DNA of 63,454 nucleotides, counting the filler, from Hausera hauseri (taxonomy: Eukaryota), in assembly GCA_046269625.1 (NCBI GenBank). It is 11 parts of 11 records of this genome, joined end to end, with 100 filler letters (N's around TTAATTAATTAA, not from the genome) between each part and the next. Parts side by side here need not be neighbours in the genome. Positions count along the whole stretch, not along the records: positions 36,257 to 41,599 come from JBJURY010274619.1; 10 more parts are not named here. One strand, 5' to 3'. The translations under genes and the position numbers were made by a program. Below the pieces are notes generated by a model, which saw only the letters and a program-made list of their open reading frames with translations, had not been told where the DNA came from and did no database searches. Of the stretch, positions 2,891 to 54,500 are shown in pieces. Numbering within the stretch: the stretch's first letter is position 1; every line of letters starts with the position of its first letter.

Positions 2891-2899
2891 GGAGTTCCA

Positions 2900-14859: not shown

Positions 14860-16482
14860 TACTTCTATGGTGGGGTAGGGGTGCTGATATAAGGGAGACT
14901 ATAAATATTTGCCTCTCTTAGCACTCAATGTCACAGTAAGTAAACAAACGTATGGAAGAGTACATAGAAAGCGAGATTCATAGATTGACCGATGACATTT
15001 TGACCGTCCATGTGTTTGATGTTCAGTACCTATGTGAGCTGTCGGAAACGAGAACAATGAGCAGAGAATATATTGAATTGATAGTCAGATTTCTGTTCGT
15101 AAAACATATCGAGGATTAAATGAGACGAAAACAACAACAGCAACGACGACGTGTTAATTTTCTCATTGGACTTGTATTTACTGCTTCGCTTTGTATTGTA
15201 ATGAAAAAGTTGATTAACCGTATTTAACCACACATAAATATGTTATTTCGCTACGTGTTTGTTTTTACTGTGTGTGTGTGTGTTCAATATAGATTGCAGT
15301 ATAAATACTTGTGCTTCTTCTTCTTCTCATATGATTATACAATGTCTCACTTGACGACACAACTCATTAGCTTATACCACTCATTCGAGGGTCTCCGGAA
15401 CCACCTGTACAATCTTGATGGACCGTTGGACAATGCTCGGTATTTGCCTCCGGAAGAGCTACTTCTACTTGCTGAGCAGAATTGGAGGGCACGAGAACCC
15501 GACTTACGCNNNNNNNNNNNNNNNNNNNNNNNNNNNNNNNNNNNNNNNNNNNNTTAATTAATTAANNNNNNNNNNNNNNNNNNNNNNNNNNNNNNNNNNN
15601 NNNNNNNNNTACAGATTCTACTTTAGAGGTAGAATACTGGATGAATTAGAACAATTAATCGATGTTGGGATTATACCCGACGAGACCAATAGAATAGTGG
15701 CAATAATAACTAACGAGCAGACTAAAGAAGAAGCCATACGTAAGGCAAAGACGGAACAGTGTGTAGGACAAATCATGGGAGTCCGAGACGCTGCAATGTA
15801 TTTTGAGTATTTACAAACAGATGAAGACAAAGAACAATATGACAAGAACTTAGTTCCATTAGGTACAACACCGGCGACCATCCAGAAACAGAAACGGCCT
15901 GTAGGTAGGCCTAGAAAAATCCGAGAAGATGTCGATTACAATGGAGAGCTAATTAGAGAATTGCGACAGATGTCAATTCCCACTTTTAGTACGGATAATG
16001 AAGAACTAAGCGAATTGATGAAGAATTTAATACGAATAGTAAACTATTCGAGCCTCCGAGGAGACACGTTAGATGATAAAGAAAAAGTGATCTTTAACGC
16101 AGCTAGGACAATGAGAAGTGCGCGTTTCAAATTATCAAAAAGTAACTTGACGGACGAAGCAGTAGTTGAGAAGATTATGGTAGAAAATTCAATAGAGGAA
16201 TTGAGAAAGGTATTGCTCTATCTAGCAATCAAGACAAATCCTAGTCGAGAAAATGAATTCAATCGGGCTATTAGCTTGGCGCGAAAAGCAGCAAGGAAAT
16301 TACCCTGCGAAGTAAATTGGCTTAAAATATTCGATAAGGAAGAAGATAAAAGAGCCACTGGTAGTAGACTAGAAGACGCGCTACGGAATCTGACGGTAAC
16401 AGGCAATAATACCCGGAAAAACGAATCTAACTGGTTAATCAGCCTACTCACGATAATGATGTTAATGAAACAGATAGGTGCC

Positions 16483-18240
16483 GTCACTGTCTACGATTGT
16501 GATAAATTTAAGCTCGGACAAAAATACTCTCTAATGGATTTAGAAGCATGCGAGGATGCCAGACCCCACAAATTGGAAACAAAAGAAAAGAGTTATATCC
16601 TGTACCAACAACAAGAATTGATATCCTTGGACGGAATGGAGTGTATGCTTAAGCGATTTCGTAGCATTTTTCATTGTGGATTAATGTATGGACATTCTTC
16701 AATAATCAAACCAACGACCCCCCTGATTCCAATGAATTTAGAAAGACAACACTGCAAACAGGCTAAAGAAACTGGAAAACTGAACTGGGATAGCATGGAA
16801 ATAGAAATGCAACCAGGGAAGATAATCAGGGTAAATAAAGTAGTAGTCGGAAGGTTAGATATGCACAACGGACATTGTAATGGAGTAGAATACGACACTG
16901 GAAAGGGATTAGAACCCAACATAGTGGTCGTAGACTTTTACGAATCAGAGATGCGAACACAGAAAGTATTGTTCCACAGCGTCACCAAATTATATACTGA
17001 GAATCAAAAATGCCATTTACAAGACGGAACATATCCCTTTCGAAGTTCTGTTATTATATGGGAACCTCCCACAGGAAAAAGCTGCAACTTCATTAAGATC
17101 AAAGAATTGAAATTCAATGAAACTACTGGGAAAAGATATGCGGATAAGGCCTATAGTAATTCAAGATCACGAGAAGATGTAGCAGAACACTCTACACCCG
17201 CCATATTAATTTCGGAACAACACGGACTGAAATTCATTAAGAAAGAAGTGATTTCGCGTTGCGAAGTTGTAATGTTTGCCACCAACTATGAAGCATTTTT
17301 TGTTGCAGAAACGGAAGTAAATGCGAAAACCTTTCAACTGCAAACACAGGACGTTCGAATGGAAGATTATCTGAAGAACCGAGATGATTATTTTTATTAC
17401 AAAGGACAAGCGGGAATAGCTGAATTGTACCACAAGATGATAACGAACGACTGTAAGTTGGATATGGAAATTATGAGGACAAAGTTAGCCCTTATTTATG
17501 CAAACCCAGAGCTGGCGTCACCAATAATTCCCATGAGAGAAGGAATTTTTGGCCGAGTTACAGGTGAAGTTTTGTTAACGTATGAATGTGAAAAACGAGA
17601 TACGCCGATCAATGTCGAAGAAAAACGATGTATACAGGAACTTCCCGTTATTTATCAGAGCACTCCAAGATTAGCTATGCCACTTACCAGAGTGTTGTTG
17701 GACAACGCGACTCAGCCAACAATCCTTAAGGATTGTAAAGCAAGCTTAGGAGAACCCATGTTTAAACACAGCGATACTAAGTGGGTTAGTTTACCAAATG
17801 GAGGTATCAGTGATACCCCAGACAAACTGGCAGGAACAAATCTCGCAAGAGGAATTACCTATGATAAATTTTTAGACACCTCATCACAAGGGATTTATAG
17901 ACCTAAGGAAATCGAAGCTTTCAGACAATTTCTTGCTTTTCCACGACAATGTACTCATGAATTAAATCGAGCTATGGCTTCTGTAATAGATGACACTCGA
18001 CATCAGGCTAAATAGGAATCGTTGTTAGGAGTAAATCACTATCAACGAGTAACTACGAAAATATTTTCTAAAATTTGGGGAAGATTCTTAATTTTTGGAC
18101 AAGCCGTATCTGGATTCTTAGCAATCTATTTTATGGTGCAATTAGTAAAGGCCGTAATCCAAGCAATCATAAATGGTTATGAAATATTTACATTAACAGG
18201 ATTTTCTTGCAAAATTTTGACTGCAATTATTACACCCTTC
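16483..18240 (+). CDS. Chuvirus (Jingchuvirales)-like envelope glycoprotein domain
   Basis: Signal peptide WLISLLTIMMLMKQIGA (from 16432), then VTVYDC, SLMDLEAC, IFHCGLMYGHSS, GHCNG, GIFGRVTGEVLLTYEC, CIQELPV, TRVL, GIY...FLAFP and WGRFLIFG...AIINGY. The cysteine spacing and motifs follow the chuvirus G pattern (YDC, CGMHSH, AGEV...C, CY.ELPV, GIY, MFP, IHGY). Confidence 0.85.
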
Positions 18241-18919: not shown

Positions 18920-19260
18920 TTGTGGAAGGAAGACCCTTTGCAAAAGTTACCATCGAGGATTGGGAAGTTTATGCCTTAGTGGACACCGGATCGGAGAAGT
19001 CCTTTATCAAATTAGAATCAATACCGCCGACACTACGAAAACAATTACAGCCAGCATCTTCATCAGATCCAAGTAGTATAGGAGCCTTCGGGCAAAAATT
19101 CAAACCGAAATTTAAGTGGAGCCCTGTAGTTCATATAATGGGTCAGACCCTTACGCATGAATTTGCTATAATGGATCAACTAACTGATGACGTAGTACTA
19201 GGTTGTGATATACTGAAACAGTTACCTAATACCGCAATAAATCTACAAACTGGGAAATTG
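18920..19260 (+). CDS. Retropepsin aspartic protease domain, in frame with the glycoprotein
   Basis: RPFAKVTIEDWEVYALVDTGSEKSFI ... DVVLGCDIL. Confidence 0.93.
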
Positions 19261-20621: not shown

Positions 20622-21139
20622 TGGAAATTATCAAAAAAATAGAGATACAACAATACTTTATTAACAAGAAAAATTACCCAATATCAATGAATACAATACT
20701 AATAGTAGCACGGTGAAGTCCTTTCGTCAACACAATCAAGATTAATAGAATAAGTCTTTATCAGTATCAATTTCGCTGCGTCTGATTTCGTTCTGTCTCT
20801 CCAATTAGTTCTGATCTAGCTCTGTTAGTATTTGGCTTTTATACTGTAACGTTTCTAGCGTATTTCATTTAGTGCCCATAATTTTCCAATAAAAACTCTT
20901 TTACTACATTATATCTTATATAATGGCTTTCTTTTATGATTCTTTTTAGATATAATTTCATTCATTCCGCTTTTTACACTCATTTTATTTCTAATATCTA
21001 CATAAATATTATTTACAATGATTTCATTAGTCGCCCAACTCTGCAAATTAGTTTTAGCAATTTGGACAGGCTGTACTATGGGTCTCTATTGCGTTATGAC
21101 CTGGACCAGCTGTCTCATTTTGACTTCTATTCTTCAACA
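20622..21139 (-). repeat. 3' LTR of copy C (left boundary approximate)
   Basis: PPT AGGGAGGAGAAA (21140-21151) directly followed by TGTTG; TATAAAA near 20840; AATAAA near 20660; candidate end ...TTTCCA. Confidence 0.7.
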
Positions 21140-21506
21140 TTTCTCCTCCCTGAGCGGCATCCTCGGATGTGCCTATTGCGTCAGGAGAGGTGACGCCCGA
21201 TCGAGGTGGTCGTAATAAGTCCATACGTTGTCTTAAGCTTGATCCTGAACTGGTACTTGCTTGATTTTCCCTATGGTTTGTCTCCAACTCGTAGCTAAAA
21301 TGGGGCTTTATTATGACCACTCTGGTATAATTGCCATTTGAGTAATACTTCAAGTCCGTCGCTTGTACTCTACACACAGCACACGTGGTTTTACCGTTTT
21401 CTAACGTCCACATTTCTAGACAATCTGGACAGTACTTGTGTCGACAATCCAAGTTATTTAGAACTACATAACCTTGTTTTAGATTGGCCTCACACCGGAT
21501 TTTCAT
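21054..21506 (-). CDS. RING-HC finger protein (putative E3 ligase) overlapping the PPT and 3' LTR
   Basis: C...CRHKYCPDC...W....CAVCR. The first Cys of the RING appears mutated. Confidence 0.75.
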   Translation of the reverse strand: MKIRCEANLKQGYVVLNNLDCRHKYCPDCLEMWTLENGKTTCAVCRVQATDLKYYSNGNYTRVVIIKPHFSYELETNHRENQASTSSGSSLRQRMDLLRPPRSGVTSPDAIGTSEDAAQGGEMLKNRSQNETAGPGHNAIETHSTACPNC

Positions 21507-21569
21507 TTTCTTTTTTTCCCCAGTTTTCGTCGTGCAAATCGACTCATTGTAATTTCAATGGGTTCCATC

Positions 21570-23644
21570 GCTAGTCCTCCTTCATCTTGGTATAGATAAC
21601 CATGTATTCTTTTTTGTTTCCTGTTTATTGAACTCTTCTTGGGATCACATACCACGGGCACTAAGGTCCAATCGCTTATAACATCTCGATCTAAATCGGG
21701 AATTTTACCAGTGTATCAGTATTTCTGATACTGTTTCTTAAGTAATATCTTTACGGACTTGTCCACAGGGACTATGAGTTTACCATTCCTTTTTGACTGA
21801 AATATTGGGACAACATATTTACCGATCCTTGGATTCTCCCATACGTACGTATTCTTATATACTTCCCATGCGGGCATCAATTTGACGAAAAACATTGCTT
21901 CTTGATTCTTTGTTGACTATAATATTCGGTAGTTACCAATATTCTGGGGTAATCCTTGGTGGTGGTGAACTGGATGTTGTCCGCGGAATCTTTCTTTCGT
22001 AATACATTTACTTCCGTTATTTGCTCCCTTTGTTTACTTGGAGGTCTTCCAAATTTTTTGGTTTAAATCGGCGTTCGCGGTTTGGATGAGTTTTCTTTTT
22101 GTAAAGTTGGATTTTGTTATTTGATTTATATCCTTCTTGTGGTCTTTTTTCGCCTTCTTTACTTTTTCCTTAAACAAGTAATCGAGGAAAGAAGTTTTTC
22201 TTTTAGTCGTTTTTCTGATTTCGGTTTCTTGGATCCTATCCCCTTTTTCTAGGTACTTTTTGGGAATTTCTGGTATTTTGAATATATAGCTGTTTTCAAT
22301 GACTTTAGTAAGCGATTTAACGTCATAGCTTGTACTAGGTTTTTCGTCTATTTGCTTTCTGCTATGGGATCTCCCGGGGTTAATTCCTTGAATAGTCACT
22401 TGATAATTCCACTCTTGTGTTTTTTCGACATTCTTTGGGGGAGAGTAGGGACGGAAATGCCTCCTGTATCGGTTACTTGATCCTTCTATTTCATGGAATT
22501 TACGTAAGTTCTTGCCAGGGTTACTTGGGATCCATTCATGTTCCCATCTTAATCCAGCATTTATGTCCCTCAAGTATTGGGAAGGTTGACTAGCAGTTAG
22601 TAATCAATTTATTTTAATATGTCCTTCACTCATTGCTTTGATCATTAGCTTAAATCGACCTTCCACGGTCGGGGGTAGATAGCCCTTTCATTCTTTTACC
22701 TTTATCTCTATTTGTTTTATTACGGTTGGATGGGTTTCCATTTCTCTTATCCCGGCTATATATGTAACGGGTATTCCTAATTTTTCTATAATCATTTCTA
22801 CTTGGTAACCCACTATGATACAACCATATAGGCAATGTGTCATATCCTCTTGTAACAGTTTACTATCTTTTCCTGATATCAATTGTTCCCTTTTTAGTCC
22901 GGTTACTTTCGCGTAAGTTTCTTTTATCCTTTTTTCTCGGATTAATTATTTTTGAGTAGATTTCCGTTCCACTTGCTTCTCGTATCGATATCGCAATCGA
23001 AATGTAGTTTTCCTCGTCCTCTTCTCCGTAGTTTACTGCGACGATCCGAATGTTCATTGTGTCTGCAACTAATCTAAATGAATGTAAGTGCTCTTCCTGA
23101 CCTTCCTCAGTGGGTTCTTGTCTAAACTCTAATGGCGGCAATGGTTTGGTTATTATATCTTCTCTTGTTGTTTCAGTCATCAGTTTTACGGGCAAGGCGG
23201 CTATACGGAATTCCAGTTCGTGGTTGAAATCTAGAAAATCCTTACTGTTGAATACAAAGGTGCTGTATCGATTTTGTCTTCCTTGAAACGAGTTCCGTTG
23301 CTGGCTTTTCAAACGGTAATAAATTTCTCCATCTTCGAGATGTATGAACAATTTTTGCTTTCCGTCAGTCTCGTAATGGGCTATTTGTTGTAGGTTATAT
23401 GCTCTTGCATCTTTATCTTCTCGCCATGCATATAAATAAATTGTCCTATCTTCTTCCGTGGTTCCTTTTAAATTGTTAGGGATGTTATTGATTTTCTCAT
23501 ATCGGACGAAAGTTTGTCCTTGTAGCACCGTACTAATCTATATATATAGACTTGGAATTTGGGATTAATACGGTTACGTATTGTTGTAGAAATTCGTCGA
23601 TGCTATGTCGGCTTGCCTGCATATCAGTCTGAGTACTTACCAAT
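21570..23644 (-). pseudogene. Frameshifted accessory ORF homologous to 56612-58717 (IPNNxK domain plus DEDDh-exonuclease-like domain)
   Basis: HSIDEFLQQY, NIPNNLKG, IRIVAVNYG...ISIREASGTEIY and CLYGCIIVG...YIAGIREMETHP align with LSIEQLLSQY, QIPNSLK, IRILTVSLG...ISDLKGKTLY and WLFGTIVMG...YLAGVVDILKHP. Confidence 0.7.
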
Positions 23645-23774
23645 CTGAAAAAGAAAATGTAAAGGTTAATCTTAAAACAAAGTATGGCTTTAAACCAAAA
23701 CCAATTCCTTGTTTGGTGACAGAATAACCTGATCTGTAGTTGTCAAGTTATTTTATCATACGGGTCCACTGGAT

Positions 23775-25140
23775 TTACCATTCCCTTAATTCCCATTCCG
23801 AATTTTTAGGACGCTTAAAATAATGATTTTTGGCAACTAATCGAAAAATCGCAATTAACATAATGAGAACAAATGTTGATAGTACTGCAGTGGATACAAT
23901 CGGTAAGACGGTTAATCCTAGCGGTGTTTGATTAGTAACTGGAGTTGTAGTTTCATCGTCTCTATCCGCATATAGGTGCGGCTCCACACGAATTTCATCT
24001 AGGGTACGCAACGTAATTGTTTGGTTTTGCTTATTCTCTGCGTGCACTTGTACTAGGTATTCAGATTGTAATTTTAGTAAATTGCACTCTGTTTGATAAG
24101 TATTTTTAAATAATGTTACAATTTGATTATTATATGTTGTTCGACAACTTATGTGTATATCGTAATTTTGTTTCTTTTCTACAACGAGCACGATTTTATG
24201 TCGGTGCGCCGAATATCTAATAGGTATGCTTTCCAACTCTGCTTTAGGTATGTTGCTCGCTGTAACAATTAGGGTAGTGGGACTAACTTTAGTGGTTGAC
24301 TCTTTGGTCGTGGTTCCCACTGCAATTTTCCATATTCTATTTTCTGGATAGTAGGTTCGTAATTGTATACTTGGTTTATTATGTCGTACCTCGTATAAGT
24401 CAAATTTTATTTTGAACTCATGGTTCACGGGAAGTTTACAACAGGGGTGTTGTACACCTGCGCGAATAGAGCAATATTCTATTTTCGGGGTTGGTCCAAT
24501 TGCTGCTTCGAATGCAATACTAATTTCTCGATGGACAGTCAGCTCTGTCCGGGTGTCTATTTGGATGCATTATTTTTCCTTGTTTACAGAGATTCTTTGC
24601 ATATTCTTGTCTAATAATCTTATACCTGGGTGGTGAATCGTAGCATTTCGTCGGGTTTTATTCCATGATGTCTTTTCCATGCAGGAATAACTAATTGAAA
24701 TTGTGGTTTTGTTTCAATATAAACTTCGGATGAGTCCGGTAAGTACAGACGATAGGTAAGGTTATAAGTATTGCAAAAATATATGTCGAAACACTGAGTA
24801 TAGTCTACACGTTCAAAATTACAATTCTTCGCTTCTTTTCTTGTTACATCATGAAAGACAATTTGAAATCTTCCGAAATCGTGGTGTGATCTCCAAGCCT
24901 TGAATCCAACACATACGGAGTGTGGTGAGAAATAATAATTTAAGGTTTTCTTGTCTTTGGACCTCTTCCGGAGTTAATCCCTTTTTCTCTGCTTTATTCC
25001 TCGCCTTCATTCCACTTTCTCGTATCCCATATATGTCTCCTAGTGTAGATTCTTTAATCCACCATTGGGTTTGTACCCTCGGCACATAAGAAGCAATAAT
25101 TGATAATGCCAAAACTATCTGAACGTACGATATTGGTCTA
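23775..25140 (-). pseudogene. Putative type-I membrane protein continuing from the integrase C-terminus
   Basis: Signal-like YVQIVLALSIIASYVPRVQT in frame after integrase (also in copy A: YIQIVLALSLIASFIPKSKAQ); C-terminal TM LPIVSTAVLSTFVLIMLIAIFRLV with a short basic tail. Confidence 0.6.
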
Positions 25141-25199
25141 GCAATTATTGAGGAAGTTTTTATCTCGCATTGGCGTAGCTTGTAACGTTTATTGGGCCG

Positions 25200-28100
25200 T
25201 ATCTCTGTCTTAACAACTCTTTGTACCGATACGACTTCTTCCTTTCCATTCTTGTTGATGTTTACTGTGGTTGGCGTAACTCTGCTAACTTCATATGGTA
25301 CTCTGCCTGTACGGGTCAATTTCAATGAGGTGCCTTTCCTGGCTACTGGATAATGTACATAAACCCAATTTCCTGGTTCCAAACCATGTGGTTTTGCTTT
25401 CTTATTCTATTGCTTTTTAAACCGCTTTTGATATTCTTGGGATAACGCCTTGGCGATTTTCGAACACTTTTGCAATCGCGTCTGTAGCACTTCTGCAAAA
25501 TTTTGTTTTAAATCCTCGGGATTAACCGTGTTTGGCCTCATTCCTAAATCCGTAGGTAACGCGGCTTCACGTCCATACATCATGAAAAATGGCGTAAATC
25601 CTGTTGCTGAGTGTGTAGTGGTATTAATAGCAAACTGAGTTCCTTCTAAAAATTCGTCCCAATCTTTTTGGTCCTTCGATACTACTGTTTATAATACGCG
25701 TATGACGGTAGCATTCATCTGTTCGACCATTCCGCTACACTGAGGGTGATATGCTGTAGTTGTTAATCGTTCGATTTCGAATATTTTGGTGATCTTCTCG
25801 AATAGTTCACTTGTGAAATTCCTTTCTCGATCTGTGGGTATCTGGTCTTGGGGGCAGTATCGGCAAATAATTCTTCTTACTACGATTTCTGCAAAGGTTT
25901 CTGCCTTTTGACCAATTAATGCTATTAACTCGACAAAATGAGTTAATCGATCAATACAAGATAAGATATACGTATTGTTCTTGTGGGTAGTAGGAAGAGG
26001 TCCTACGATATCCAGAGACATGGCTTGCATGGGTCAATCGGGCACAAAAATTGGTTTTAATTCGGCCATGTAGTTTTTCGTCTTCTTTTGTTTTGTTGCG
26101 CATACTTCGCGGGCATTTACCCAATTCTTTACATCAATATAGATATTGGGCCAAAAGTATTTATTTATTATTCTTTCTAATGTTTTCTTCCACGATATGT
26201 GTCCGGCTAAATATGAATCATGTTTCGATGTTAACACTTTGGTTCGTAAACCCTTTGGAATAACTAGCAATTTTCTTCCTTTCCGTTCGTAATATAAAAT
26301 ATACTCATAGCTCTTGTTATTTAAGACGCGGTACTTATGTCCATGTCTGTGTAAATGTTTCTTTAACTGTCGGCCCATCAGTATGATGTCTTTTTTAGCC
26401 AATTCTATAATCTGCTGATTAACTTTATTTTTTCTTTGTTCTTAGGAGATTTTAATTGCATTATCCAACGATAAGGCGCGTTGGCGATCTACTACTGCTT
26501 CAAGTTGTCTTTTCTTCATTACCGTGATTGCGCTTGATTTAGTCTTTAATCTCGATAATGCATCGGCATCTACATGATTATTTCCTGGTTTATACTGGAA
26601 ATCGATATTGTGTCTCGATATTTCTTCGATCCATCTGTTAAGTCTACATGTCGGGTTATTTTCTTGGCCTTTTAAAGTCGTAACGGCCTTGTGATCATTG
26701 ACAATTATAATTTTCTGCCCGTATACGTAAACGTTGAAGTGTCGAAGTGCTTCTTTTACGGCTAGAGTTTCTAATTCGGTAACAGAATAATTTTTCTCGG
26801 CCTTCTTCAAGGAACGCCCTCCATAAGCAGTTAAGTGTTATAATTCTTCAGCTTATCTTTTCTGTGCTAAATAATATCCAATGCCTTCTTTACTAGAGTC
26901 TATCTTGATTATAAAATGTAAGTTAAAGTCTGGGTATCGTAAAACAGGTTCGCTTGTTAATATCTTCTTCATCTCATCGAAGGCTTTATAATCGACGTCC
27001 GTCCATTTCCATTCAATTCCTTTTCTAAGTAGACGATATAAAAGTGCATTAATTTTTAAATTATATGGCACAGGCTGCGTAATATCCGCGGAGTACTAGC
27101 CAGTGCCTTAACTCTTTCTGATTTTGTGGTTCCATGCAATCTGATATTTTGTCTAATAACGATTTATCTGGTTTCGATCCTCCTTCTCCAACTATATGGC
27201 TAAGGTAGGATAGTGCATTCTGAGCCCATTTACATTTCTTCCGATATAGTTTCAATCCGGCTTGTTCCAAAATCATCAGCGTGTGTTCAATGTCCTTCAA
27301 ATGTTCCTCTTCTGTCCTTGACTCTATCATTACGTCATCAAAATATGCAAAGGCATGATGCAGTCCCATTAACATTTTGTTCATCATTCTTGTAAATATG
27401 GCTGGTCCGGTAGTAATACGAACTGCATGACGTTAAATTCATAAACACCATCGGGTGTTTTGAATGCTGCCTTATAACGGTCTTCGTCCTCAGTCTCTAC
27501 TTGCCGATATCCGGATTGTAAATCCAGACTGGTAAACCATTTTGCTCCTGACAGTCTGTCTAAAGCCTCTTTCACTGACAGTAATGGGAAGGAATATTTC
27601 ATAATAAGATTATTTAAGGCTCTGTAGTCAATACAAAATCGATGTTTGTAGTACCTTTCTTATTAACCATGAGGATTGGTGAATACCAAGACATATAGCT
27701 GGGCCTAATTATATCGGCCTTAAGCATTCGTTCGACTTCCTTCGTTATCTCGGGCCTTATTGAGTGTGGCGGAGGGTACCATTTTGGCATCTTCTGGTCT
27801 TCCAAGTCTATTTTTTCGTTCGAACCAGGCTTTTTCTTGAGTGGAATAGTCAGTTTTAACTCTTTCGCTCTACCGATATCTTCTTCGTTCTTAGCGATAA
27901 TCGATTTATAGCGGCATAATAATTCATAGAATCGACAATAAGGCTCAGATAAAAATTCAGCTTCGACATGAGGTGGGAATTCGGCATACTTATAAGATTT
28001 TTCTTGAATAGTTATTGGCGATACTCTATAGTTATTTCCTAGAGTGGTATAAGCATAAAGCCTGACGGGTGTCTGTGCGTTATTAGCTATTCTGATCGGC

Positions 28101-28400
28101 ACCCGACCGAAGTGTACACTTGTTAGTATATTGCTGAGTATTATATTTGAATCTAATATATCCTTTGGTTTAAAATGTACCGGTTGATCGTCATCTTGCT
28201 ACATTTGGGGGTAAATTACCATTTCTATTCTTGGTGGAATGTCGTTGTCCACAGGTATCTATACTTCTTTAAATTTTCTTTCTTTGGCGTTTTTATACCC
28301 TTATTTAGTCCGATTTTTACCACCTTTCCCGCTTGTAAGTCGATCACTATATCTCTGTATCTATCAAGGCATAAACTTCCCAATCTTCGATAATGATTTT
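25200..28400 (-). pseudogene. Gypsy pol (PR remnant, RT, RNase H, integrase) of copy C
   Basis: ALIDT; LDLQSGY; YFDD; YPDFN..FIIKIDSS; NYSVTELETLA; HDSYLAGH; LDIVGPLP; TTAYHPQCSGMVE. Confidence 0.92.
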
Positions 28401-30870: not shown

Positions 30871-31701
30871 AGCGCTTATGTGATTTATTAGCATCATCAA
30901 GGTGAGTAGGCTGATTAGCCAATTCGATTCATTTTTTCGATAGCCAACATACGCCGTTGTCAAATTACATAACATATCGTCGAGTTTGTTACCGGTACGT
31001 CCGTCTTCTTCCTTGTCAAATAGTCTTGACCACTTTACTTCGCAGGGCAGTCTTCTAGCCGCTTTTGGTGCTAAGCTTACAGCTCTATTGATTTTATTTT
31101 CTCGACTGGGATTTATTTTAATAGCTAAGTATAGTAATACTTTTCTCAATTCCTCGTTGGTGTTTTCTACCATAATCTTTTCAATTACCGATTCAACTGT
31201 TAAATTACTTTTCAATAGTTTAAAACGTGAACTTCTCGTCATTTTAGCTGCATCGAATATTATCTTTTTTTATCATCTAATACATCACCTCAAAGGCTTG
31301 AATAATTTACAATTCGTATTAAATTCTTCATTATCTCGTCTAATTCTTCATTATCTGTGCTAAAAGTCGGAATCGACATTTGTCTTAATTCTCTAATCAA
31401 TTCTCCGTTGTAGTTTACTTTTTCGCGCGTTTTCTTGGGCCTACCTACTAGACGTTTCGTCTTTTGGCTCTGGCGGTTATTTCACTCAGTGGTACTAAAT
31501 TTATATCATATTGTTCCTTATCTTCGTCCGTTTGTAAGTCCTTAAAATACATTGCAATATNNNNNNNNNNNNNNNNNNNNNNNNNNNNNNNNNNNNNNNN
31601 NNNNTTAATTAATTAANNNNNNNNNNNNNNNNNNNNNNNNNNNNNNNNNNNNNNNNNNNNGTTCTTTCATCATCACGTGTCCCGTTTTAAGGGTGGGAGA
31701 A

Positions 31702-35706: not shown

Positions 35707-37680
35707 GTGACGCTCAAAAAATCTTGAATGGGTTTTATCTAAATCTTCTTTTGATTTGAACCCGAAAGTAAAATCTGGAGTGCGAACGAAATAATATTTT
35801 TTTGGTTCAAACTGTTTAATAATATGCTGAATAATTGCTTTGCAAAAATGCAGTTTATCAAAAAACAACTGAAAACAGATATGATATACAAATTTGTATT
35901 AAAAAAATACAAAAATGCTAAAAGACAAATTAACAACTATCAATTAAAATTAGAACAAGTTGCTCAACTGTTCTGGAAATTTGATCCAGAATCAAATATT
36001 TCCAAATTTTTGTCAAATAAACTGAATGTTTAAAAAGCTTTTGACTTAATTCAGTCCTCTGATAGAGATTTGACTTCTAAACATTTTAGAACTGAAGTTG
36101 ATTTAGTGTGTCAATGCTTTTTTTGTGTGTCGTAAGTGATTTTTAGTGCAGGTTTTNNNNNNNNNNNNNNNNNNNNNNNNNNNNNNNNNNNNNNNNNNNN
36201 TTAATTAATTAANNNNNNNNNNNNNNNNNNNNNNNNNNNNNNNNNNNNNNNNNNNNAGTCATTCGTTATCATCTTTTGATATAGCTCCGCTATTCCAGCT
36301 TGTCCCTTGTAATAGAAATAGTCGTCTCGGTTTTTGAAGTAATCTTCGATCCGCACATCTTGTGTTTTCAAATCATACGTTTTTATATCGATTTCTGTTT
36401 CCGCTACAAAAAATGCTTCGTAGTTAGTGACATACATAACTACATCACAACGTGTTAACCTATCTTTTCTAATAAACTTTAACACGTGCGCGTCTGATAT
36501 CAATATCGTTGGTGTGGGATGTTCTATTACGTCTTCCTTTGATCTGGTATTTGTGTGTAATTTGCCTGAATAACGTTTTCCGGTGGTCTCGTTGAACTTT
36601 AACTCTTTTATTTTGATGAAATTGCATTCTCTGTTGGAGGGTGGGTTCCTTACAACGACTAAACTTCGGAACGTGCAAGCGCCATCTTGAAAGTGACATT
36701 TTTGATTTTCGGTGAATAGTTTGGTAACACTGTGAAACATGGCCTTTAAGGATCTTTATTCGGTTTTGTAGAAATCTACGACTACTATCCCTCCTTCCTT
36801 TCCTTTTCCGGTGTCATATTCTGCTCCGACACAATAACCGGTTTGAATGTTTAATTTTCCTACCGCCACTTTTAGGCTTTAATTATTTCCCTTCTTGTGC
36901 TTCTAACTCAATAGCGTCCCAAACCATTTTGTCGGCTGTCCGGACTACTAAATAATGTTGTCTATCCACATTCATTGGAATTAATGGTGTGGTTGGTTTG
37001 AGTATTGAAGAATGACCGTGCATATTACCACCGTGAAATACGCTGCGGGATTTCCGTATCATGCATTCCGTCGCGTCTATTGCGATTACTTCACGCTGCT
37101 GATATAGTATGTATTTTTTCTGCTGTCTCGTGCTTATGGCGTCTCGCATCTTTGCATGTTTCGAAATCCATCAAGGAATATTTCTGACCCACCTTGAATT
37201 TGTCATAGTCGTATATGGTGACTGCTTCTATCTGTTTTACTAGCATCATTATCGTCAGCAGGTTGATTAACCAATTGGATTCGTTTCCTTTATTCGGGGC
37301 GATATTTCGTACCATGTCATCTAAATTATTGGTCATCTTCATATTATCCTCTTCTTCGAATAATTTAGTCCATTTTATTTCTTTACGTACCCTTCTTGCA
37401 GATTTTCTAGCTAATCCATTTGTCTTGTCGAATTCATTTTCCCGTAGATGGTTAGCTTTTACGGCTAAATATATCAAGACCTTCCTTAATTCTTCCATCG
37501 TATTGTCTATCATGATTCTATCAATTACTATTTCATCAAGGAGGGTGCTTTTAGATAATTTGAATCGCGAAGTCTTCATTGTCCAGGCTATATTATATAT
37601 TAGTCTTTCTTCCTCGGATAATATGTTGCCTTGGAGTCCGGTATAATTGACTATATTAATTAAATCCTTTATTACCTTGA

Positions 37681-39477
37681 TTAGTTCTTCGGGGTTCGTA
37701 CGGACAGTTGTCTTTGTTCCCTAATCAGATCTGCATTATAGTCTATTTCTTTCATTTTTATTGGCCTTCCGACCGGTCGTTTCGGTTTCGTCGGTAGTAA
37801 AGTTTCACTTAGAGGAACTAAATTTTTATCGTATTGCAGTTTTTCGTCATCAGTCTGTAAGTATTTGAAATACATTGCAGCATCCTGAATCCCCATGATT
37901 CTTCCGACGCAATGCTCTGTATGCGCCTTCCTCATGGCTTCGTCTTTGGTTTGCTCACTAAAAATTATTGCTATTATTCGATTTCCTTCGTGGGGTATAA
38001 TCCCCACGTCTATTAAAGATTCTAACTCATCTAGTGTCCTACTCCTGAAATAGAGTCGGTAATTAACTCCTTCCTTACCATCCTTATCCATTATTCGCTG
38101 TCTTATATCCGCAACGGTGGTATAAGTAGTGCACTCAAATTCCTCGTCGTCCATCCATTCGGATGATACTTTAACTTTAATTTCCGTTTCTGGTTTGTTT
38201 CTCAATCGTTTAGCGTATTCTCTTATTAGGAGCTTGGTGACCGCTCTGTATGCGGTGTTTTCACTGGATAGCTTAGTCAAAGTTGGGATAAATTTCCTTA
38301 GTCTATCCTCACTTATGTTTATTTTCAGTACACCGCTTAGCTCCTTTTCAGCTAGTATAGGATCAAGTATCATTTGTACGCCAAATTTCGTTTTCTGGGT
38401 ACCAATAAGTAACTCATAAATTTGTATTGGAGTTTTTTGACTCTGCTCGTTTAAACTTTGGAGGTATTCATCCCACTCGGCATTATTATCTGCGTCAGGT
38501 AACCCGTAGTTTATAAATGCCGCGTGTCCAACTTGGACTCTTTTGCGTAGTTCTCGTATCTGCGGTTGTAACGTTTTCATTATGGAAACCTTAAATCCGT
38601 CTCCATTTCCGCAAGCCTGTTGTATCAATGTTATTATTTGGCACATTTTTTCTGGTTGTATCAAGGCTTTCTCCTGATAGCTGGTCACCTCTGTGATTCT
38701 GTCTCTCAGCCATCTCTGTACAAATTCCCTTTTGTCGTTTACTTCAGATTCCGTAAGGGAATACTTGTTCTTGTGAACTTCCGCTTCTCTTAGTAATTTG
38801 TTTAGTTCGCACTGTCTTTTCTCGCAGCGTAGCCGGGTTTCTTTTATCAAACGTATTCGATTTGTCAGTCGTCTGGCTACTATTTCGTCATTTTTTGCCA
38901 TTTCTTTTAATAGTACTTTTTTGTTCAATACTTCGGCGTCCGGATCTATTGCGTCTATTAGCCTGCCTATGAACTTGGCTTCGTCATCTGTCAACTGAAG
39001 ATCCTTCCTAAATTCCGTTAGTTTGGTATGGCAATGTAGATCGAAACCTGGTGTCCATTCGGCTGGATTCTGGAAATATTGTAATGTTTGCACCAGGGCG
39101 ATTCGGTGATCGTTACATACTTCTAATGTTTCAATTTCCTGCGCTAATATTTCCTTCAATGGTTTCTGCATTAGGCTCTGAATCCCTTCCCAACGGATAT
39201 TCGCTAAGCTTCGCTGAAGGTCACTTAATTTATTTCTCTTTCTATCGAATTCCTTTTCCTCAATCATACTATATATCAATGTTGGTGTTGTTTGATCTTG
39301 ATTACTACTCATAAATTCAAGTTCTCGGAATGATTTGAATTTAATTCGCAATTTCGCTTTCTCCTCCATTGTACCTATATCCACTAACATTTCTTCCAAT
39401 TGGTGTCTCATTATAGGCTCAGTCATAGTGAATTCTCTTAGCTTCTCATTTATTATCGCTGTTATGGAAGGGAACAA
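37681..39477 (-). CDS. Polyprotein segment: helical/coiled-coil region, ubiquitin-like domain (37963-38181) and AT-hook (~37756-37782)
   Basis: [41 protein letters not shown] compared with ubiquitin [49 protein letters not shown]. Confidence 0.7.
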   Translation of the reverse strand: [598 protein letters not shown]

Positions 39478-41009
39478 GTCTATCCACTTCCTTATTTGTT
39501 TGGGTATTACCGGTTTAGTGTAGATTATCTCGTCTAGTGACTCAAGAGCTTCTTTTAGTTCGTGATCTGGCCCTCATACAAATATTATGATATGTTTCAG
39601 GTAGTTGAATTTTTTTATACTCATCTAATTAAAGAAGACAAGCGCGTGTTATTCGCTGAGCTTCTGCTTTTTCGGGGTGAACTATACCGGTCCTAAATTT
39701 TTTAATTTTGGTTCGTGCCTCATTTTCTTTTCCAATGCATGATTTTAAATCTGGATACTTCCGAGGGCTATCCTTTATCAGGTTGCACATTTCTATTAGC
39801 TGTGGGATATCAATTGGGTCTATGCCTAATATCTCTAATTCGGTTTCGTTTAGTTTATACACTGGCTTGATGTGAAGGTTAGAGATTGTCGCCTCTTCGA
39901 TCTTATATAGAAGTTCTTCTAAATTACGTCTTACACGTTTCCGTCTCTGGTTCTCTTTTAGTGCGTTTAATAGTCCTTGCGCTTGGTTTACTTGATCAAG
40001 AAACGGTTCGCTTCTATTTCTCCACATTTTCGTAAAATCAATCCTGCATCTCGTCCACAGCTTTAATTTATTTTGCCAACCTTTCATCAAATCTTTCAGC
40101 GTTTCTTGGAGTTCATAAGGTGTATTTTCTTCCCTTTTCTGAGAACCGGTTCTAAGATTTTTATATAGCTTTTCTATGAATTGTTGTTCTTTTCTGGAAA
40201 TATCCAACTGTTTGCCCATCTGTTGGAGTTTTTGGGGATTCTTATGTAGTCTTCCGGGATCATTCAATGCATCTCTCTTATTTCTATTAGTTCGTTTGCA
40301 TTTTTCCAAGATTTTCTGATTTTCCCAAACCCAGTAGGTTTTTCTTCTTCTGATTCCTCCTCACTAGGTGGTAATGGGCATATTTCATTAATTTCACCGA
40401 TATTCGAAGTATTTGCTAGTTCCGGAACATCTTGGGTTATAATAGGAGTATTTAACTCCGCTTCATCTCTTAAGATGATAGTAAAATCTTCTTCCTTTTC
40501 TAAATCCTTTTTAATAGGAGATCGCGAACGGGTTCCCGACCTTCTTCTAAGTGAAGGGTTTTTACCCCTATTTTTTGTTATCTTACGTATTAGTGGGCCA
40601 ATGAATTCGCTCTCAACCTCATTTGCTGTTTTGTCCTTATCTTGAGGCGCGACCTCGGTATCTTCGTCTAAGTCTAGACTTGGAGACGTGGTCGTTTTTC
40701 ATTCTTCTGCTACCTCATTTTGGTTTATCTTCCTGGCCATGTTAGTGTTTCTGGGTGCTATAGCAATTTTGTATTCCGTTTTTGGTTCTCTTGACCCATG
40801 ATAGACTTCCATTAGCTGCAAATTTTCTTCATACTCCTTCCTGGACTTGCTTACTTGTGGATTATTAGATTCACCCATATTTCTTATATACCTTCGTAGG
40901 TCTTGCATCTCGATAATCATGCATATATCACCTCGTTTTCCATAGATTCCTTCCAAATTACCCTTTATCACACTAGCTTTACTGGTCTCCTAAAATGATA
41001 CGCTCCGTG

Positions 41010-41599
41010 GGTTAGGGCACGATCTAGCTATATGTCCTTCCTTGCCATATGAATAACAAATTAAGTTTCCGTCTCGGGCGATCCTTTGTCGCCCGTCTTC
41101 TTTCACTGGTGATTTGGATCTGCCTATTACTTTATTTTGAGTTGGTCAAGCTTGTTTATTGATTCCATTATTTCTATTTTCGAAACTGCGACTCTCCATA
41201 TATCGGTTCTTGTTATTTCGGTTATTATTTTGGTTTCTATCCAGATTATAACCTGTTTTGTATGTGTTCTGATTATCACTAAAGTTCCTATTATCGTATC
41301 TCGTACTGCGATTAGTGGCATTTTGAATTCTATTCTCATAGCCTCGGTCCCTATTATTATCATTAAATCTTCTATTGTTCCGGTTTCTATCCTGATTATC
41401 ACGATCATTATTTTGGTAATATCTATCATTCTGTCTAGAGTATCTATCTAGTGCCATTTCTAACTTCTGGGCTAACTGTAATGCAGTCTCGAAATTGTCT
41501 GGACGAGCTAAAATTACTTGCTTAACTAAATCTCTGGACCATATACCATTTATTAACTGAGTTGTCATCATGAGATCTAAATCCGGCGGGCTAGCTTTT
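41010..41599 (-). pseudogene. gag: Gag C-terminal part (capsid CTD end, N/R/D-rich linker, CCHC zinc knuckle)
   Basis: QLINGI...ILARPDNFETALQLAQKLE; N/R-rich stretch; ICYSYGKEGHIARSCP (CX2CX4HX4C with one C>Y change). Confidence 0.8.
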
Positions 41600-43477: not shown

Positions 43478-45483
43478 TCAGGCTAGTTCTAAATTTGGAT
43501 ATAGCAATAATTTGCCTGATGGTTTTGTTTCTCGTTTTTGTTCATCTCTTACTACTGTTATGTTTGTGTTCTCGTAATTAACAGGTTTGACGGGTGTTTG
43601 TGTTTCTGTGTTCCTATCCTTTAATTCCATGTTTTTACTGTTTCTGGTAGCTTCGGCTGTTTTGTTCTCCATACATTTAATTATTTATGATGGTTTTTCT
43701 ATTCTTCGCTCCTACCAAGCCTAACACGATTATCACGACAATCGTTGATATCGTCATTCCCCCAAGTTACTTCTGGATCTTGTATTTACTTTGCTAATTT
43801 CCTGTATCTGGTTTAGTTCATTAATCAGATCGTTCATTTCAATCCGGTCTACGTTTTTCTACGGCTGTGGTAAATTCCTTAACACTAATGGTTTCAATTG
43901 TTTCTTCACTGGTTCCCAGATTTCCGAACCGATCCGTTTATTAATTACTTCCTTTAATTCTACTTTATCCTCCACATTAACGCTACTACTGAAAGTTCTA
44001 TACGAAGTTAACCTAAACCAATCAGTATGTGCAGTACATTCTGAATCCAATGTTATAATATCTAGCGGAGCTTGTAATTCTATATGTTGTGTTGTTACCT
44101 TATCCTCTTCTTCTCATAACTTTGTTACAGTTATGTTTCTTGAAGTTATTACTAACCATTTGTCTTCATGAATCTTTTCTAATTGTGGAATATCAGGTTT
44201 CAGTGTTATCTCAGCTCTACAGTCTTCTATTATATTCTCCGTCTTATCTAAAAATAATGTTAGTACTCAGAATCTTGCTCCGTTTACTATATATACTGGA
44301 TTCTCAAATTTGCAAAACCTATACGGTTGGTTTTCACATCTTTCTAATTCTTCCTGATTGACTAACGCAAATTGTGTTCTTTCCTTATTTATTCGAATGG
44401 TAGATTCTTCTACAATGTATCTTGCCATGGGTACCCTGTTTGTTTTCCCTACTAGATCTTCATTTATAGGTTTAAATAGGGGTTTAACTTTATAAACTTC
44501 GTATATATTCACATTATCCACTAAAGGTATATCTGTGACTGTGATGATCTGTCGTCTAAAACTGGTCGTATCTATTGATAACAACTTATAGTATACCCAT
44601 AGTTTTTCTTCTATGTCAGTTGGGAACTGTACGTTTGTAATTGGCACTTTTTGTAATCCCTCTAAGATGTTTTTCAATTCTGCTGGCATAAGTAGACTTG
44701 TCGTTAATTTCTTATTTATGGATACGTTTAGACTCGTCAGTAACTTCTCAATAGCATCCCTCACTTGATATATGAGTTCCCTACAATTGTCTGCTGTGAC
44801 TAAACTTATGAAAGAACGTTGCGTAAACTCCTCTAAGTCCCTTATTTCACCTTTTAACTGTGAATTCACCTGGTTGGAATAATCGACTATCTCCTGAATG
44901 AGTCTAAAAGCTCTGTTAATATGATCCATATTCTCGTGTACTTCTTTTCTTGTAATATTCAAAATAGAAATACTTCTCTCCATTACATGTTTCAATTTCC
45001 CTTGATTATCTGCAATTATTTTTATATCCTTTTTCATCCCTTCACCGTCAACTTCATTCGCTGTATCAAATAGAAATCCTAACACATCACCAATGTACGG
45101 TAGAACTGATCTTTTCCTTCTACCAGTATCTATTACAGTTTGGAATGTCTTATGTTCCTTGAGTAGGTAAAATTTCAATAACATAATCTCCTCTCTTAGT
45201 GTTTCTAGTGAATTAGCATAAGTACCATTGCCTCTTGCCTTGTAATTTTCTCAGTAACGTCTTGTAAGCGCATAGCTTGTCTGGTTGCATTCACTAATGC
45301 TTCCTCGTATGGCTGCATATCTGTCACAATGGTTAATTTCCAATGGGTTTTAATATCTGACCCTTCTTTCACTTTAATAAACACTGTATTATCTCTCACC
45401 AATATATGGTTTTTCTCCTTCTTGCCAAGAATGGTGGTGATATACATTATCGTCCACCATAGAATCCTTATTCGTCTCTTCAT
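43478..45483 (-). pseudogene. env: Envelope protein, baculovirus-F/errantivirus type (frameshifted)
   Basis: Signal MKRRIRILWWTIMYITTILG; furin site RRKR (45110-45121) followed by fusion peptide SVLPYIGDVLGFLFDTA; heptad region; TM MTISTIVVIIVLGLVG. A TACTAAC branch point at 45534-45540 lies upstream. Confidence 0.85.
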
Positions 45484-45543: not shown

Positions 45544-47035
45544 CTAATTCCTTTCTAACTTTTTCATAGCGTATTTGGTTAATACTGCGATGGTCGGGTC
45601 TTCGTCCTCTTCTATTGGCTTGCCCTTTTTACTTTTTTGTTTCTGTTTCTTCACTTCACAACTTTGCATTTCCCGTGTTCTTTCTGCGGTCTGCTTCTCA
45701 TTTTTCTTCGCTCTTAACTCCTTCTTCTCAATCTCTGGTTTTACTTTACTCTTTTTCTCTTCTCTCTGTGTTTCCTCTAATTTGACTTCCTCCTTTTTGG
45801 TTTGTTTCTTTTTTGTCCTCCCAACTGCCGCTTGAGGTTTCCGTTTTACCACTGGTTCGTCTTCACTCGAACTCTCTTCTGTGTAAGGTCTTTTTATTGC
45901 TTCTCTCATAGTTTCCTCCATTTCTTCTTCTCCCTCATCCTCGCTCGATACCATTGATGACGGTTCTCTCTGTATGTTTTGTCTGATTTCCTCATCCTCA
46001 CGCGCCACAGGTTTCTCTGCTCCTTCATGGTTGATTCTCTCATCTCTGTCTGCTAGTCTCATTTGTCTTTCCGGTATGGGCATATCACTTTCCTCTGAGG
46101 AATGTTCCCTCATTCTCCTAGCTCTCTCTAATTGTCTTTGTTTTGCTGCTTCAGTTCTTCGTCTAAGTGCTCCTCTGGTCTTTTGGAATGGTGCGTCCAT
46201 AAATTCTTCAGTTTCTCTAATTGATTCTTCCTCGTCTCCTACAGACTGTGTGTCCTTAGCGTCCTTGTGTTCCTTATATTTTCTCTCTCGCATCATTTGT
46301 TGGTAGGTTACTGGCGTATATCCTCCTACAGCTGATTCATCTTCAAAGTCTGACAATAAATCATCTTCGCTTTCGATATCTGATGCTTCCTCGTCTGTTG
46401 ATTCTGGTGTTACTGCATATTTCGTGTTCCTAAGTCTTTTATCTCCTTCTACCTTTTCTAATTCATCCCATCCTGTGTCATCCTTCCTCAATTCTGAAGT
46501 GGTTGCTTTAGCCTGGTGTCCACTCCAATAATTCTTTATCTCGTATGTAACTGGTCCTCTTTTCTCAATGATTATATACCCCTTTGTCCACTTATTGTTG
46601 AATTTGGAATCCTTGCCGTGTACTTTATACTATACTTTGTCGCCTACTTCAAATTCCTGTTGTTCTGAATTCTTGTTGCTTGATGCTTCCTTTTTATAAA
46701 TGCTTTCTTCAGACTCCCATGTACCCTCAAAAATGTCCTATGCATCTCCTGCAGCAAAATGTCATAGAAATCTTCTCCTAAGTACTTCCTATGCGGCTTC
46801 AGCAATAAATCTAGGGGAAGAATTGCTTCTCATCCATACAACAATTCGAATGGTGAATGTTTCATACTTCCATTCTCGTTCATTCTCAATGCTGCTAATG
46901 CTTGATTCAGATACAAGTTCCAGTTCCTCTGATTGTCTTCTACATATTTCGCTATGATGTCGTACATAGTTCTATGCTGTCTCTCATTTTTCCCGTTACT
47001 CTGTGGGTGGTAGAATGATGTCGTTATATGCGTAA
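45544..47035 (-). pseudogene. Integrase C-half with a long charged (E/K/R-rich) extension
   Basis: YHPQSNGKNER, FEVGDKV, KFNNKWTKGYIIIEKRGPVTYEI, then a 315-aa low-complexity tail. Confidence 0.8.
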
Positions 47036-51500: not shown

Positions 51501-54500
51501 TTTGGTGGGCTTCCGCTTATACAAGGACATAGGCCTCCCCTTTCGTTTACGATGATGGTAGCCGACATGACGTTCTACATCTGATTTCCATCAATTTTCT
51601 TCATAGACCTTTAAAAACTTTCCGAAAGGTGTGATGATTGCCGTCAATATGTTACACAATAATCCCGTCAATGTAAATATTTCATATCCGTTTATCAAAG
51701 CTTGGCCTACCACCTTAATTAGTTGTATCATAAAATATATCGCTAGAAATCCAGGTGCGGCTGGTCCAAAAATTAAAAATCCTACACAAATTTTGTAGAG
51801 TATTTCCTTATTTACTCGTTGGTAATGATTTACTCCGAGCAATGATTCCCATTTAACTTGATATCAAGTATCGTCTACTACTGAGGCCATAGCTCGATTC
51901 AATCCGTGCGTTCGTTGTCGTGGGAAAACCAGAAATCGTCTAAAGCTTCAGTTTCCTTTGGTCTATAAATTCCTTTTGATGAGGTATCCTGGAATTTATC
52001 ATCCATGATTTATTTCACGAAATGAGTTCCCGTTAACTTAATTGGAGCGCAGTAATACCTCCGTTTGGCAAACTTACCCAATCTGTTTCGCTACGTCTAA
52101 ACATCGGTTCTCCTAAGCTTGCCATACAATCTTTAAAGATTGTTGGCTGAGTTGCTTTACCTAACAATACTCTGATAAGTAGCATGGCTAACCGGGGAAT
52201 GTTTTGGTATATAACCGGAAGTTCTTGGATACACCGTTTTTCTTCGACATTGATCGATGCATCACTTTTTTCACATTCGTAAGTCAATAAAACCTTACCG
52301 GTTACTCGACCAAAAATTCCTTCTCTCATAGGAATTATTGATGATGCTAACTCAGGATTAGCACAAATGAGAGCTAGTTTTGTTCTCATAATTTCCATGT
52401 CTAGCTTACAATCGTTTGGCTATTCCAACTTGTCCCTTGTAGTAAAAGTAATCGTCTCGATTTTTCAAGTAATCTTCAATACGAATATCCTGTGTTTCGA
52501 GTTGATAAGTCATTGCATTTATTTCCATTTCTGCGACGAAAAATGCTTCATTATTAGTGGCAAACATCGCAACCTCGCACCGTGAAATTATTTCCTTTTT
52601 AATAAATTTTAGCCCATGGGTATCGAAATCAGTATCGTGGGTGTAAAATGCTCTGCCACGTCTTCGCGCGTTCTTGAGTTACTGTCGAATTTATCCACAT
52701 ACCGCTTCCCGGTGGTTTCATTAAATTTTAGTTACTTAATTTTGATAAAATTACAGTTTATTCCAGAGGGACGTTCCCATATTATAACAGAACTTCTAAA
52801 AGCACACGTTCTGTCTTGTAAGTAGCATTTTTGATTTTCGGTATACAGTTTAGTCACACTGTGAAACATCACTTTCTGTACCCGAATTTCTGATTTATAG
52901 AAATCTACGACTATTACGTTCGATTCTACTCCCTTCACGGTGTCGTACTCTTCTCCATTACAGTGCCCTTTGTGCATATCTAGCTTCCCAGCTACTACTT
53001 TATAGGATCTAATTATCTTTGCTGGTTGCATTTCCAGTTCCATACTATCCCATTTTAATTTTCCTGTTTCTTTCACCAGTTTACAGTGTTGACGTTCTAA
53101 GTTCATTGGAATTAAGGGTGTCGTCGGTTTAATTATCGACGAATGCCCGTGCATTAATCCGCAGTGAAAAATGCTACGTGACCGCCCTAACATACATTCC
53201 ATCCCATCCGGTGATATTAATTCTTGTTGCTGGTATAGGAAGTAACTTTTCTCTTTTGTTTCTAGTCTGGCGTCAAAATCCATTAAGGAGTATTTCTGTC
53301 CGAGTTTGAATCTATCGCAATCATAGACCGTAACTGCACCCATCTGTTTTATCAACATCATCAATGTTAGAAAGCTAATTGACTAATTCGATTCGCTTCT
53401 TCGGTTACTGTTATCCGTTGCCATCAGGTTCCGTAGCATGTCTTCGAGTCGGCTACTATTATTGGATCCTTTATCTTCTTCCTTCTAGAACAATTTTTAC
53501 CAGCGTACTTCTTGGGGCAATTTCCTAGCCGCTCTTCGTGCCAAACTTGTAGCTCTATTAAATTCATTTTCTCAACCGGGATTCGTTTACATAGCTAAGC
53601 ACAGTAGTAATTTTCTTAGGTCTTCTATTGTGTTCTCCACCATAATTTTTTCGATCACCGTTTCATCGGTTAGATTACCTTTTTATAACCTTAAACGAGA
53701 ATTTCTCGTCATTCTAGCTGCATTAAATGTCGCTCTCTCTTTTTCGTCTAATACGTCACCATGGAGGTTTGAGTAATTTACGATGCGTATTAGATTTTTC
53801 ATTAACTTATTTAATTCGTCGTTGCCTGTGGTAAAATTAGGAATAGACATCTGTCTTAATTCTCTAATCAGTTCTCCGTTATAGTCAACGTCTTCTTTAA
53901 TTTTCCTGGGTCTGCCTACCGGACGTCTCTGTTTCGGAACAGTTATTGTCATTATACTCCGTGGCACTAAATTCTTGTCATATTGTTCCTTGTCTTCCTT
54001 CGTTTGTAAATATTCGAAATATATTGCGTAGTCTCTGACACCCATGATTTGTCCTACGTATTGTTCTTTCTTGGCCTTACGCGTGGTTTCTTCTTTCGTT
54101 CGTCGTTGGTTATTATTGCCATTATTCGGTTTACCTCATCAGGTGTAATCCCAACGTCTGCTGGCTGCTCTATATCGTCCAGTATTCTACCTCTGAAGTA
54201 GAATCTATAGTTCAATTTATTTGTTCCGCCACTGTTATTTACCCATTCTCTTGCGTACCTTACATAGGAATAGGTGGTCAACGCGCATTCTTTTACCTCC
54301 ATCCACTCAGATGATATCCTTAGTTTTATCGACATCTCGGGTTTAATTTTTAAGATTTTAGCGTATACCTTAATCAAAGGTTTCTGCACCGCGCTGTAGA
54401 TTGTGTTCTCACTAGATAGTTTGGTTAAATTCGGAATAAGCTGTCTTAACTTATTTTCCGTAATATTCACGTTAATTAATTTAATTAAATCCTTTTCGGT

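Follow-up and report, generated by a model that had tools for sequence, protein, structure and literature searches.

A stretch of 63,454 nucleotides from Hausera hauseri, referred to here as the window, contains on its minus strand at 37963-38181 what is very probably, judging by its predicted fold, the ubiquitin-fold domain (UBL) of a Burro-like element. The domain is kept by purifying selection and occupies the spacer between Gag and Env in a Burro-like, high-copy but decayed Ty3/gypsy retrotransposon of GAG-ENV-POL order; on the most likely, though tentative, reading it is an uncleaved docking module for the host ubiquitin-proteasome machinery. For Burro elements, where such a domain was known from a single line of HHpred annotation, this adds evidence from fold and selection; it also speaks against reading the UBL as a cleavage signal. 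In enveloped Gag-Env-Pol elements a single chain has to be sorted into capsid, membrane protein and enzymes, and a small natural UBL provides an easy handle on how ubiquitin-like cargo might aid such elements.

Element copies and architecture

The window consists of 11 short contigs with N spacers between them, and positions count along the joined stretch. Pieces of one Ty3/gypsy family are present on five of these contigs and are approximately 64-75% identical in DNA: copy A (contig 4476-9312), copy B (15610-19622), copy D (19723-31560), copy C (36257-41599), which is the site of the UBL at 37963-38181, and copy E (48522-54931). All copies in the window are broken. The contigs span 4-12 kb; full element size and LTRs lie beyond what contigs of this length show.

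The order of parts is Gag, a helical spacer, a three-helix unit, the UBL, approximately 60 residues, a basic GRP motif, a helical-looking domain, a signal-like stretch, an Env matching PF24664, a TM-like stretch, protease, an insert, RT, RNase H and integrase. The C-terminal part of Gag in copy C (40993..41598, minus strand) contains stops and is similar to the Gag of two proteins found in database searches, P0005 and P0006 (see below). It includes one visible degenerate CCHC knuckle (approximately 41058..41011, minus strand; zf-CCHC E=0.0022). Between Gag and the three-helix unit lies a spacer of approximately 950 codons, mostly helical-looking and broken in copy C, where stops and a frame change interrupt the continuity from Gag to the UBL; in P0005 and P0006, Gag and UBL share one ORF. 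An open segment of 630 codons (37681..39573, minus strand) covers a long helical region of the Gag-to-Env spacer, the three-helix unit, the UBL and the basic motif. Upstream of the UBL, no Pfam family reached the cut-off within 37681..39573.

The helical-looking domain of copy C (37346..37690, minus strand; placed by alignment) lies after the basic motif and ahead of the Env signal, where Burro has its BCL2-like domain. Its equivalent in copy B is located at 16003-16347 (plus strand), shortly before the Env signal stretch. Pfam, PDB and Atlas searches returned no Bcl-2 match for this domain. In P0006, residues approximately 915-980 contain what look by eye like BH1/BH2 motifs, and the Env signal stretch of the window copies could double as a Bcl-2-type tail anchor.

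In copy C, the signal-like hydrophobic stretch and a broken Env ectodomain occupy 36257..37290 (minus strand; tblastn to copy B) and run off the contig. The Env region of copy B (16435..18171, plus strand) comprises a signal-like stretch (16435-16491), an ectodomain matching PF24664 (E=3e-41 and 6e-16) and a TM-like stretch (18115-18171), the two stretches being placed by hydropathy. PF24664 is presumably a gB-type Env, in keeping with a by-eye match to published Env rows (see below). An aspartic protease follows in the Env frame (18928..19224, plus strand; RVP E=2.8e-7), and the UBL half of copy B, Env and protease share a reading frame that is interrupted once, by a stop at 18013. PF24664, RVP, RVT_1, RT_RNaseH, Integrase_H2C2 and rve were mapped by Pfam across contigs C, D and E. 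An insert is present between protease and RT, with no dUTPase match in Pfam. Pfam likewise gave no match to MATH, BIR, ankyrin or Smc in the ORFs scanned, which come from decayed and cut copies.

Downstream of the integrase, contig D contains, within 25406..21057 (minus strand), a signal-like hydrophobic stretch, one ORF that ends in a TM-like segment (24569..23778), two unannotated ORFs, and a RING-finger ORF (21554..21057; E=1.2e-4). These are likely accessory cargo.

Sequence evidence for the ubiquitin-like domain

The 73 codons of 37963-38181 are open on the minus strand, and the plus strand contains stops. With the fold model taken into account, the domain extends over 37954..38181 (minus strand) and ends without a C-terminal glycine. 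The earlier note, made from the sequence alone, had pointed to an ubiquitin-like segment of approximately 73 residues, and the HMMER alignment bears this out: 43 residues of copy C pair without gaps with ubiquitin 19-61, with 12 identities by hand count. Against the Pfam ubiquitin family PF00240 (cut-off 25.4 bits), copy C scored 18.1 bits (E=0.0023), copy E 14.5 bits (E=0.03) and P0006 17.1 bits (E=0.0046), the last being a match independent of copy C. All profile matches of the UBL lie under the curated cut-offs. Given this shortfall in Pfam, it is on the evidence of the predicted fold that the UBL is a remote member of the ubiquitin-like superfamily.

Ubiquitin chains dominated a phmmer search of the PDB with copy C. 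Single-domain matches started at E=0.004, and the lowest E-values are inflated because of poly-ubiquitin repeats. With a profile of the family, 8 of 8 PDB matches were UBL domains, led by those of ubiquilins (E 0.009-0.05); with a best profile E of 0.009, no donor gene can be named for the UBL. Conversely, a host-UBL profile ranked the copy C ORF first among 1102 targets. The UBL profile gave host UBL repeats 4.6-14.0 bits versus 10.9 for the best of 2200 shuffles, a modest separation. In the ESM Atlas, ubiquitin and Rad60-SLD clusters were matched at 0.90-0.91 and ranked after unnamed clusters. Among 1100 window segments searched, no second UBL was found. Matches of the UBL region to Avr2/Six3 were rejected and put down to chance, because the predicted fold gives them no support.

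Predicted fold

AlphaFold2 (AF2) was run on an alignment of five retroelement sequences only, with no ubiquitin rows and no templates. The model shows a strand-strand-helix-strand-strand arrangement with pLDDT of 72-91 across residues 71-150, which is the beta-grasp fold that the earlier note had expected; a single-sequence run on 37699-38400 was uninformative (pLDDT 35). With this fold predicted and a ubiquitin profile matched, if below its cut-off, the outcome that the earlier note had named as refuting does not apply. After the last strand of the UBL, the model runs on into a helix.

Foldseek returned 294 PDB matches at E<=0.001, and among the matches listed all were ubiquitin, SUMO, ISG15 or UBL entries, with a target-normalised TM of approximately 0.74-0.88 versus single-domain chains. 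VIA on the best structures gave Z of 9.4-9.9 over 71-80 aligned residues (rmsd 1.6-2.2 Å for the top five), and model residues 74-149 superimpose on ubiquitin 1-76. VIA was also run against 48,161 chains without recourse to the Foldseek matches, and the best Z was 9.7 (rmsd 1.9 Å, 76 residues aligned, 18% identity). In the structural alignments, identity to ubiquitin and its relatives does not exceed 22%. SUMO1, a Parkin entry and ubiquitin tie in VIA, and the model is no nearer to SUMO than to ubiquitin. Ubiquitin inserts of BVDV are among the viral fold matches of the UBL model.

Conservation and selection

The UBL had been proposed as conserved in copies B, D and E. It is full-length in copy E (54111..54329, minus strand; 49% identity to copy C), whose contig goes on through Env, PR, RT, RNase H and the IN zinc domain. 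Copy B retains the C-terminal half (15610..15711, plus strand; 33 residues, 79% identity), cut by the contig start. For copy D the proposal did not hold: it has the basic motif and no UBL, because its contig begins after the UBL position.

A search of 1.84 billion representatives yielded 13 matches to the UBL region. Two of them, P0005 and P0006, align over the preceding helices and the UBL with approximately 26% identity and are Gag proteins with a zinc knuckle. P0008 and P0011, from the other 11, are multi-UBL proteins that do not belong to retroelements; the remaining nine of the 13 were placed with non-retroelement UBL proteins from the range of their match alone. Queries with longer proteins or with the copy B ORF brought nothing new, the corresponding region of P0006 found itself only, and no relatives of the locus were present in the metagenome contigs and viral contigs scanned. 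Fold and selection evidence together support a beta-grasp UBL retained across the element family.

The ubiquitin pattern read by eye in the earlier note stands in part. The part of the UBL conserved in the family is its C-terminal half only, and the 'I.DK.G' stretch is specific to copy C, being missing in copy E, P0005 and P0006. The statement that the C-terminal GG is absent was confirmed: no glycine follows the last strand in five of five sequences (copies C, E and B, P0005 and P0006). The HMMER alignment places Tyr, Ser and Arg of copy C opposite Ile44, Gly47 and Lys48 of ubiquitin. The changes of Ile44 to Tyr and of Lys48 to Arg are found in the window copies; Gly47 is retained in the other four sequences.

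The UBL copies are under purifying selection. Over the 33 codons of the UBL half in common with copy B, dN/dS was 0.08 and 0.12; for Env, copies E versus B gave 0.04. Between copies C and E the UBL is synonymously saturated (pS 0.76, pN 0.28). Sequencing run X1, which is possibly the source sample and so not independent, has 1169 contigs on 37740-38360 with no indel listed, the X1 depths not being copy numbers; by hand count, 23 of the 40 variants shown (100 in all) are at third codon positions. Read-coverage bins of the UBL match those of the remainder of contig C. Synonymous sites are near saturation between copies but the protein is kept, and no indels are listed for the X1 contigs; the UBL is therefore a lasting component of a large family, as opposed to an insertion in a single copy.

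Three-helix unit and basic motif

The three-helix unit of copy C (38200..38349, minus strand) is directly N-terminal to the UBL and belongs to no named family. Its helices in the AF2 model are residues 18-24, 31-45 and 52-67. The unit precedes the UBL in four of the four sequences that cover the site (copies C and E, P0005 and P0006), with 57% identity between copies C and E; in the remote relatives it was placed by alignment at residues approximately 588-640 (P0005) and 576-630 (P0006). Searches gave no named match and one weak one, to a designed protein based on a CARD template (E=0.32), the fold lists being filled by the UBL. By eye, the unit resembles the TFIIS-N/LEDGF-IBD type or CARD, and it may be a captured host fold.

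Approximately 60 codons after the UBL, as previously indicated, a basic GRP motif follows in copies C (37782..37756, minus strand; degenerate) and B (15892..15918, plus strand). It is also found in copy D (31431..31457, minus strand), where the contig continues with Env-PR-RT-RH-IN and the accessory ORFs, and in copy E (53902..53928, minus strand). The canonical core of the AT-hook is R-G-R-P flanked by basic residues. Of the earlier designation as an AT-hook, the presence of a basic GRP motif stands; the motifs in the window read VGRP, and that of copy B is under the cut-off for Pfam AT_hook PF02178 (12.3 bits, E=0.16, cut-off 17.4). P0005 and P0006 have a canonical KRGRP after the UBL, at a larger spacing, yet show no Pfam AT_hook match. 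A loose version of the motif occurred in 149 of 20000 and in 265 of 20000 ORF shuffles. As a sequence motif it is plausibly an AT-hook, and an NLS is equally possible.

Comparison with known elements

The Burro elements (Burro / GYPSM1) of planarians are giant Gypsy-like LTR retrotransposons more than 25-30 kb long. According to the accessible sections of the review, they have two to three CCHC knuckles; a Ubi2/SUMO-like domain lies between MATH and BCL2, Env follows in frame, after Gag and ahead of Pol, and PR and RT are separated by a dUTPase-like insert; MATH is optional in the Burro of D. tigrina (PMC6431247). The element described here is similar in its CCHC-knuckle Gag, the Ubi/SUMO-like domain in the Gag-Env spacer, the mononegavirus-like fusion glycoprotein placed in frame after Gag and before PR, the PR-RT insert, the accessory ORFs and the decaying copies. 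It differs in having one knuckle versus two to three, and in that MATH, BIR, ankyrin and BCL2 were undetected. The architecture with a UBL before Env is thus already known from Burro, and the element of copy C is a decayed further member. Two small details of which the literature searched gave no description are added by the basic motif and by the three-helix unit that accompanies the UBL: the accessible text of the Burro review mentions neither an AT-hook (0 occurrences) nor the three-helix unit (PMC6431247), and no mention of an AT-hook in such elements was found in the literature searched.

GAG-ENV-POL order is reported, in the available portion of the source, from Nematoda, Bryozoa and Platyhelminthes in errantiviruses of HSV/gB type, e.g., Smed_errantivirus_1-6 (PMC13524379). 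The present element shares with these the gene order and an Env between signal-like and TM-like stretches; the published elements are intact, whereas the window copies are decayed. By eye, insert and motifs of the Env agree with those in the Platyhelminthes C1a rows (six Schmidtea) and not with the 10 nematode rows seen in the supplement (PMC13524379). This resemblance points to a flatworm-type element. That paper leaves the Gag-Env spacer unannotated, and its main text, as available, contains neither ubiquitin nor AT-hook (0 matches; PMC13524379).

With the integral (type II) UBLs of ubiquilin, BAG6, RAD23, Parkin and UHRF1, the domain has in common a beta-grasp within a larger chain and the lack of a conjugable GG; it differs in the Tyr at the Ile44 position and in its site in the middle of a polyprotein.

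Proposed role

The element would make one long polyprotein, in which the hydrophobic stretch before Env would act as a signal-anchor. If this first hydrophobic stretch is indeed a signal-anchor, the UBL would be cytosolic, together with the three-helix unit, the basic motif and the helical domain. This cassette would be released by signal peptidase and the element's own protease, and not by host deubiquitinases. The integral UBLs of ubiquilin, RAD23 and BAG6 bind ubiquitin receptors or ligases via a hydrophobic patch. The UBL might bind such receptors or ligases in the same way, via a patch that appears to be retained. With Tyr at the Ile44 position and Arg at that of Lys48, standard receptor binding is not assured, and docking of the UBL onto host proteins of the ubiquitin system is proposed only tentatively. 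The basic GRP motif may bind AT-rich nucleic acid or help nuclear entry.

The main rival, unlikely though worth weighing, is that the UBL is instead the element's own assembly adaptor, with UBL and basic motif tying the capsid or the genomic RNA to the Env membrane. Analogues exist in coronavirus nsp3, whose Ubl1 binds the nucleocapsid, and in the Env leader of foamy viruses, which binds Gag. In the window copies the UBL keeps a constant site after the Gag knuckle and ahead of the Env signal, in P0005 and P0006 it lies inside the Gag ORF and is followed by KRGRP, and the absence of the cleavage glycine also fits. Against this stand the neighbours of the UBL in Burro, which are the host-modulating MATH, BCL2 and BIR in the accessible part of the review (PMC6431247), so that a host-directed cassette is a better fit. 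A wider proposal, quite unlikely on present evidence, would make an ancient module, conserved in enveloped Gypsy elements, of the three-helix unit, the UBL and the basic GRP motif. The module would lie at the cytosolic side of the Env signal-anchor, take the place of a matrix/late domain or a chromatin tether, and connect the capsid either with budding at the membrane or with AT-rich DNA of the host.

It appears improbable, but the UBL could also belong to an anti-defence cassette and act there as a decoy or competitor, dampening host silencing or apoptosis signals that depend on ubiquitin or SUMO. The tie of the fold with SUMO1 and ubiquitin agrees with this, as does the RING ORF downstream in contig D (E=1.2e-4); on the same side counts the work of Lee et al. 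2026, which is said, at second hand, to describe a Burro1 with an anti-apoptotic RING-BIR region. However, identity of at most 22% leaves little surface mimicry, selection between the copies is purifying and not diversifying, and Bcl-2 and BIR were undetected in this element.

The role as a processing signal suggested in the earlier note was modelled on pestiviruses: in the available sections of the sources, cytopathogenic BVDV carries cellular ubiquitin inserts in its polyprotein and is cleaved behind ubiquitin by host ubiquitin C-terminal hydrolases (UCHs) (PMC8310069, PMC13517609). The UBL resembles these inserts, some of which are among its viral fold matches, in being a ubiquitin-fold sequence within a viral polyprotein, but it is very unlikely to be such a signal. 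That role would require a C-terminal (Gly-)Gly; all five sequences lack a glycine after the last strand, and the model has a helix there instead. The domain is also old, divergent (<=22% identity to ubiquitin) and fixed in its family, whereas the pestivirus inserts are recent cellular ubiquitin (PMC8310069, PMC13517609, as far as available). The uncleaved docking module is therefore the reading kept here.

Other elements in the window

A different element at 45250..44267 and 46629..45544 (minus strand) contains a coiled-coil, Env-looking ORF after an integrase tail; this ORF has a furin-like RRKR by eye and no Pfam match at the cut-off. At 12017-13272 (minus strand), a protein-primed DNA polymerase B (E=6e-10) adjoins an endonuclease VII-like ORF (E=4.7e-4), which suggests a Polinton/adintovirus-like relic. 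Fragments of an F-BAR (FCH) domain in two adjacent frames at 2593-3804 (plus strand; E=2.7e-4) are possibly a host gene or a retrocopy. Long ORFs at 56612-61051 (minus strand) are without Pfam matches; two are exonuclease-like by eye and two have terminal TM-like segments. A distant integrase zinc domain is located at 63055..62771.
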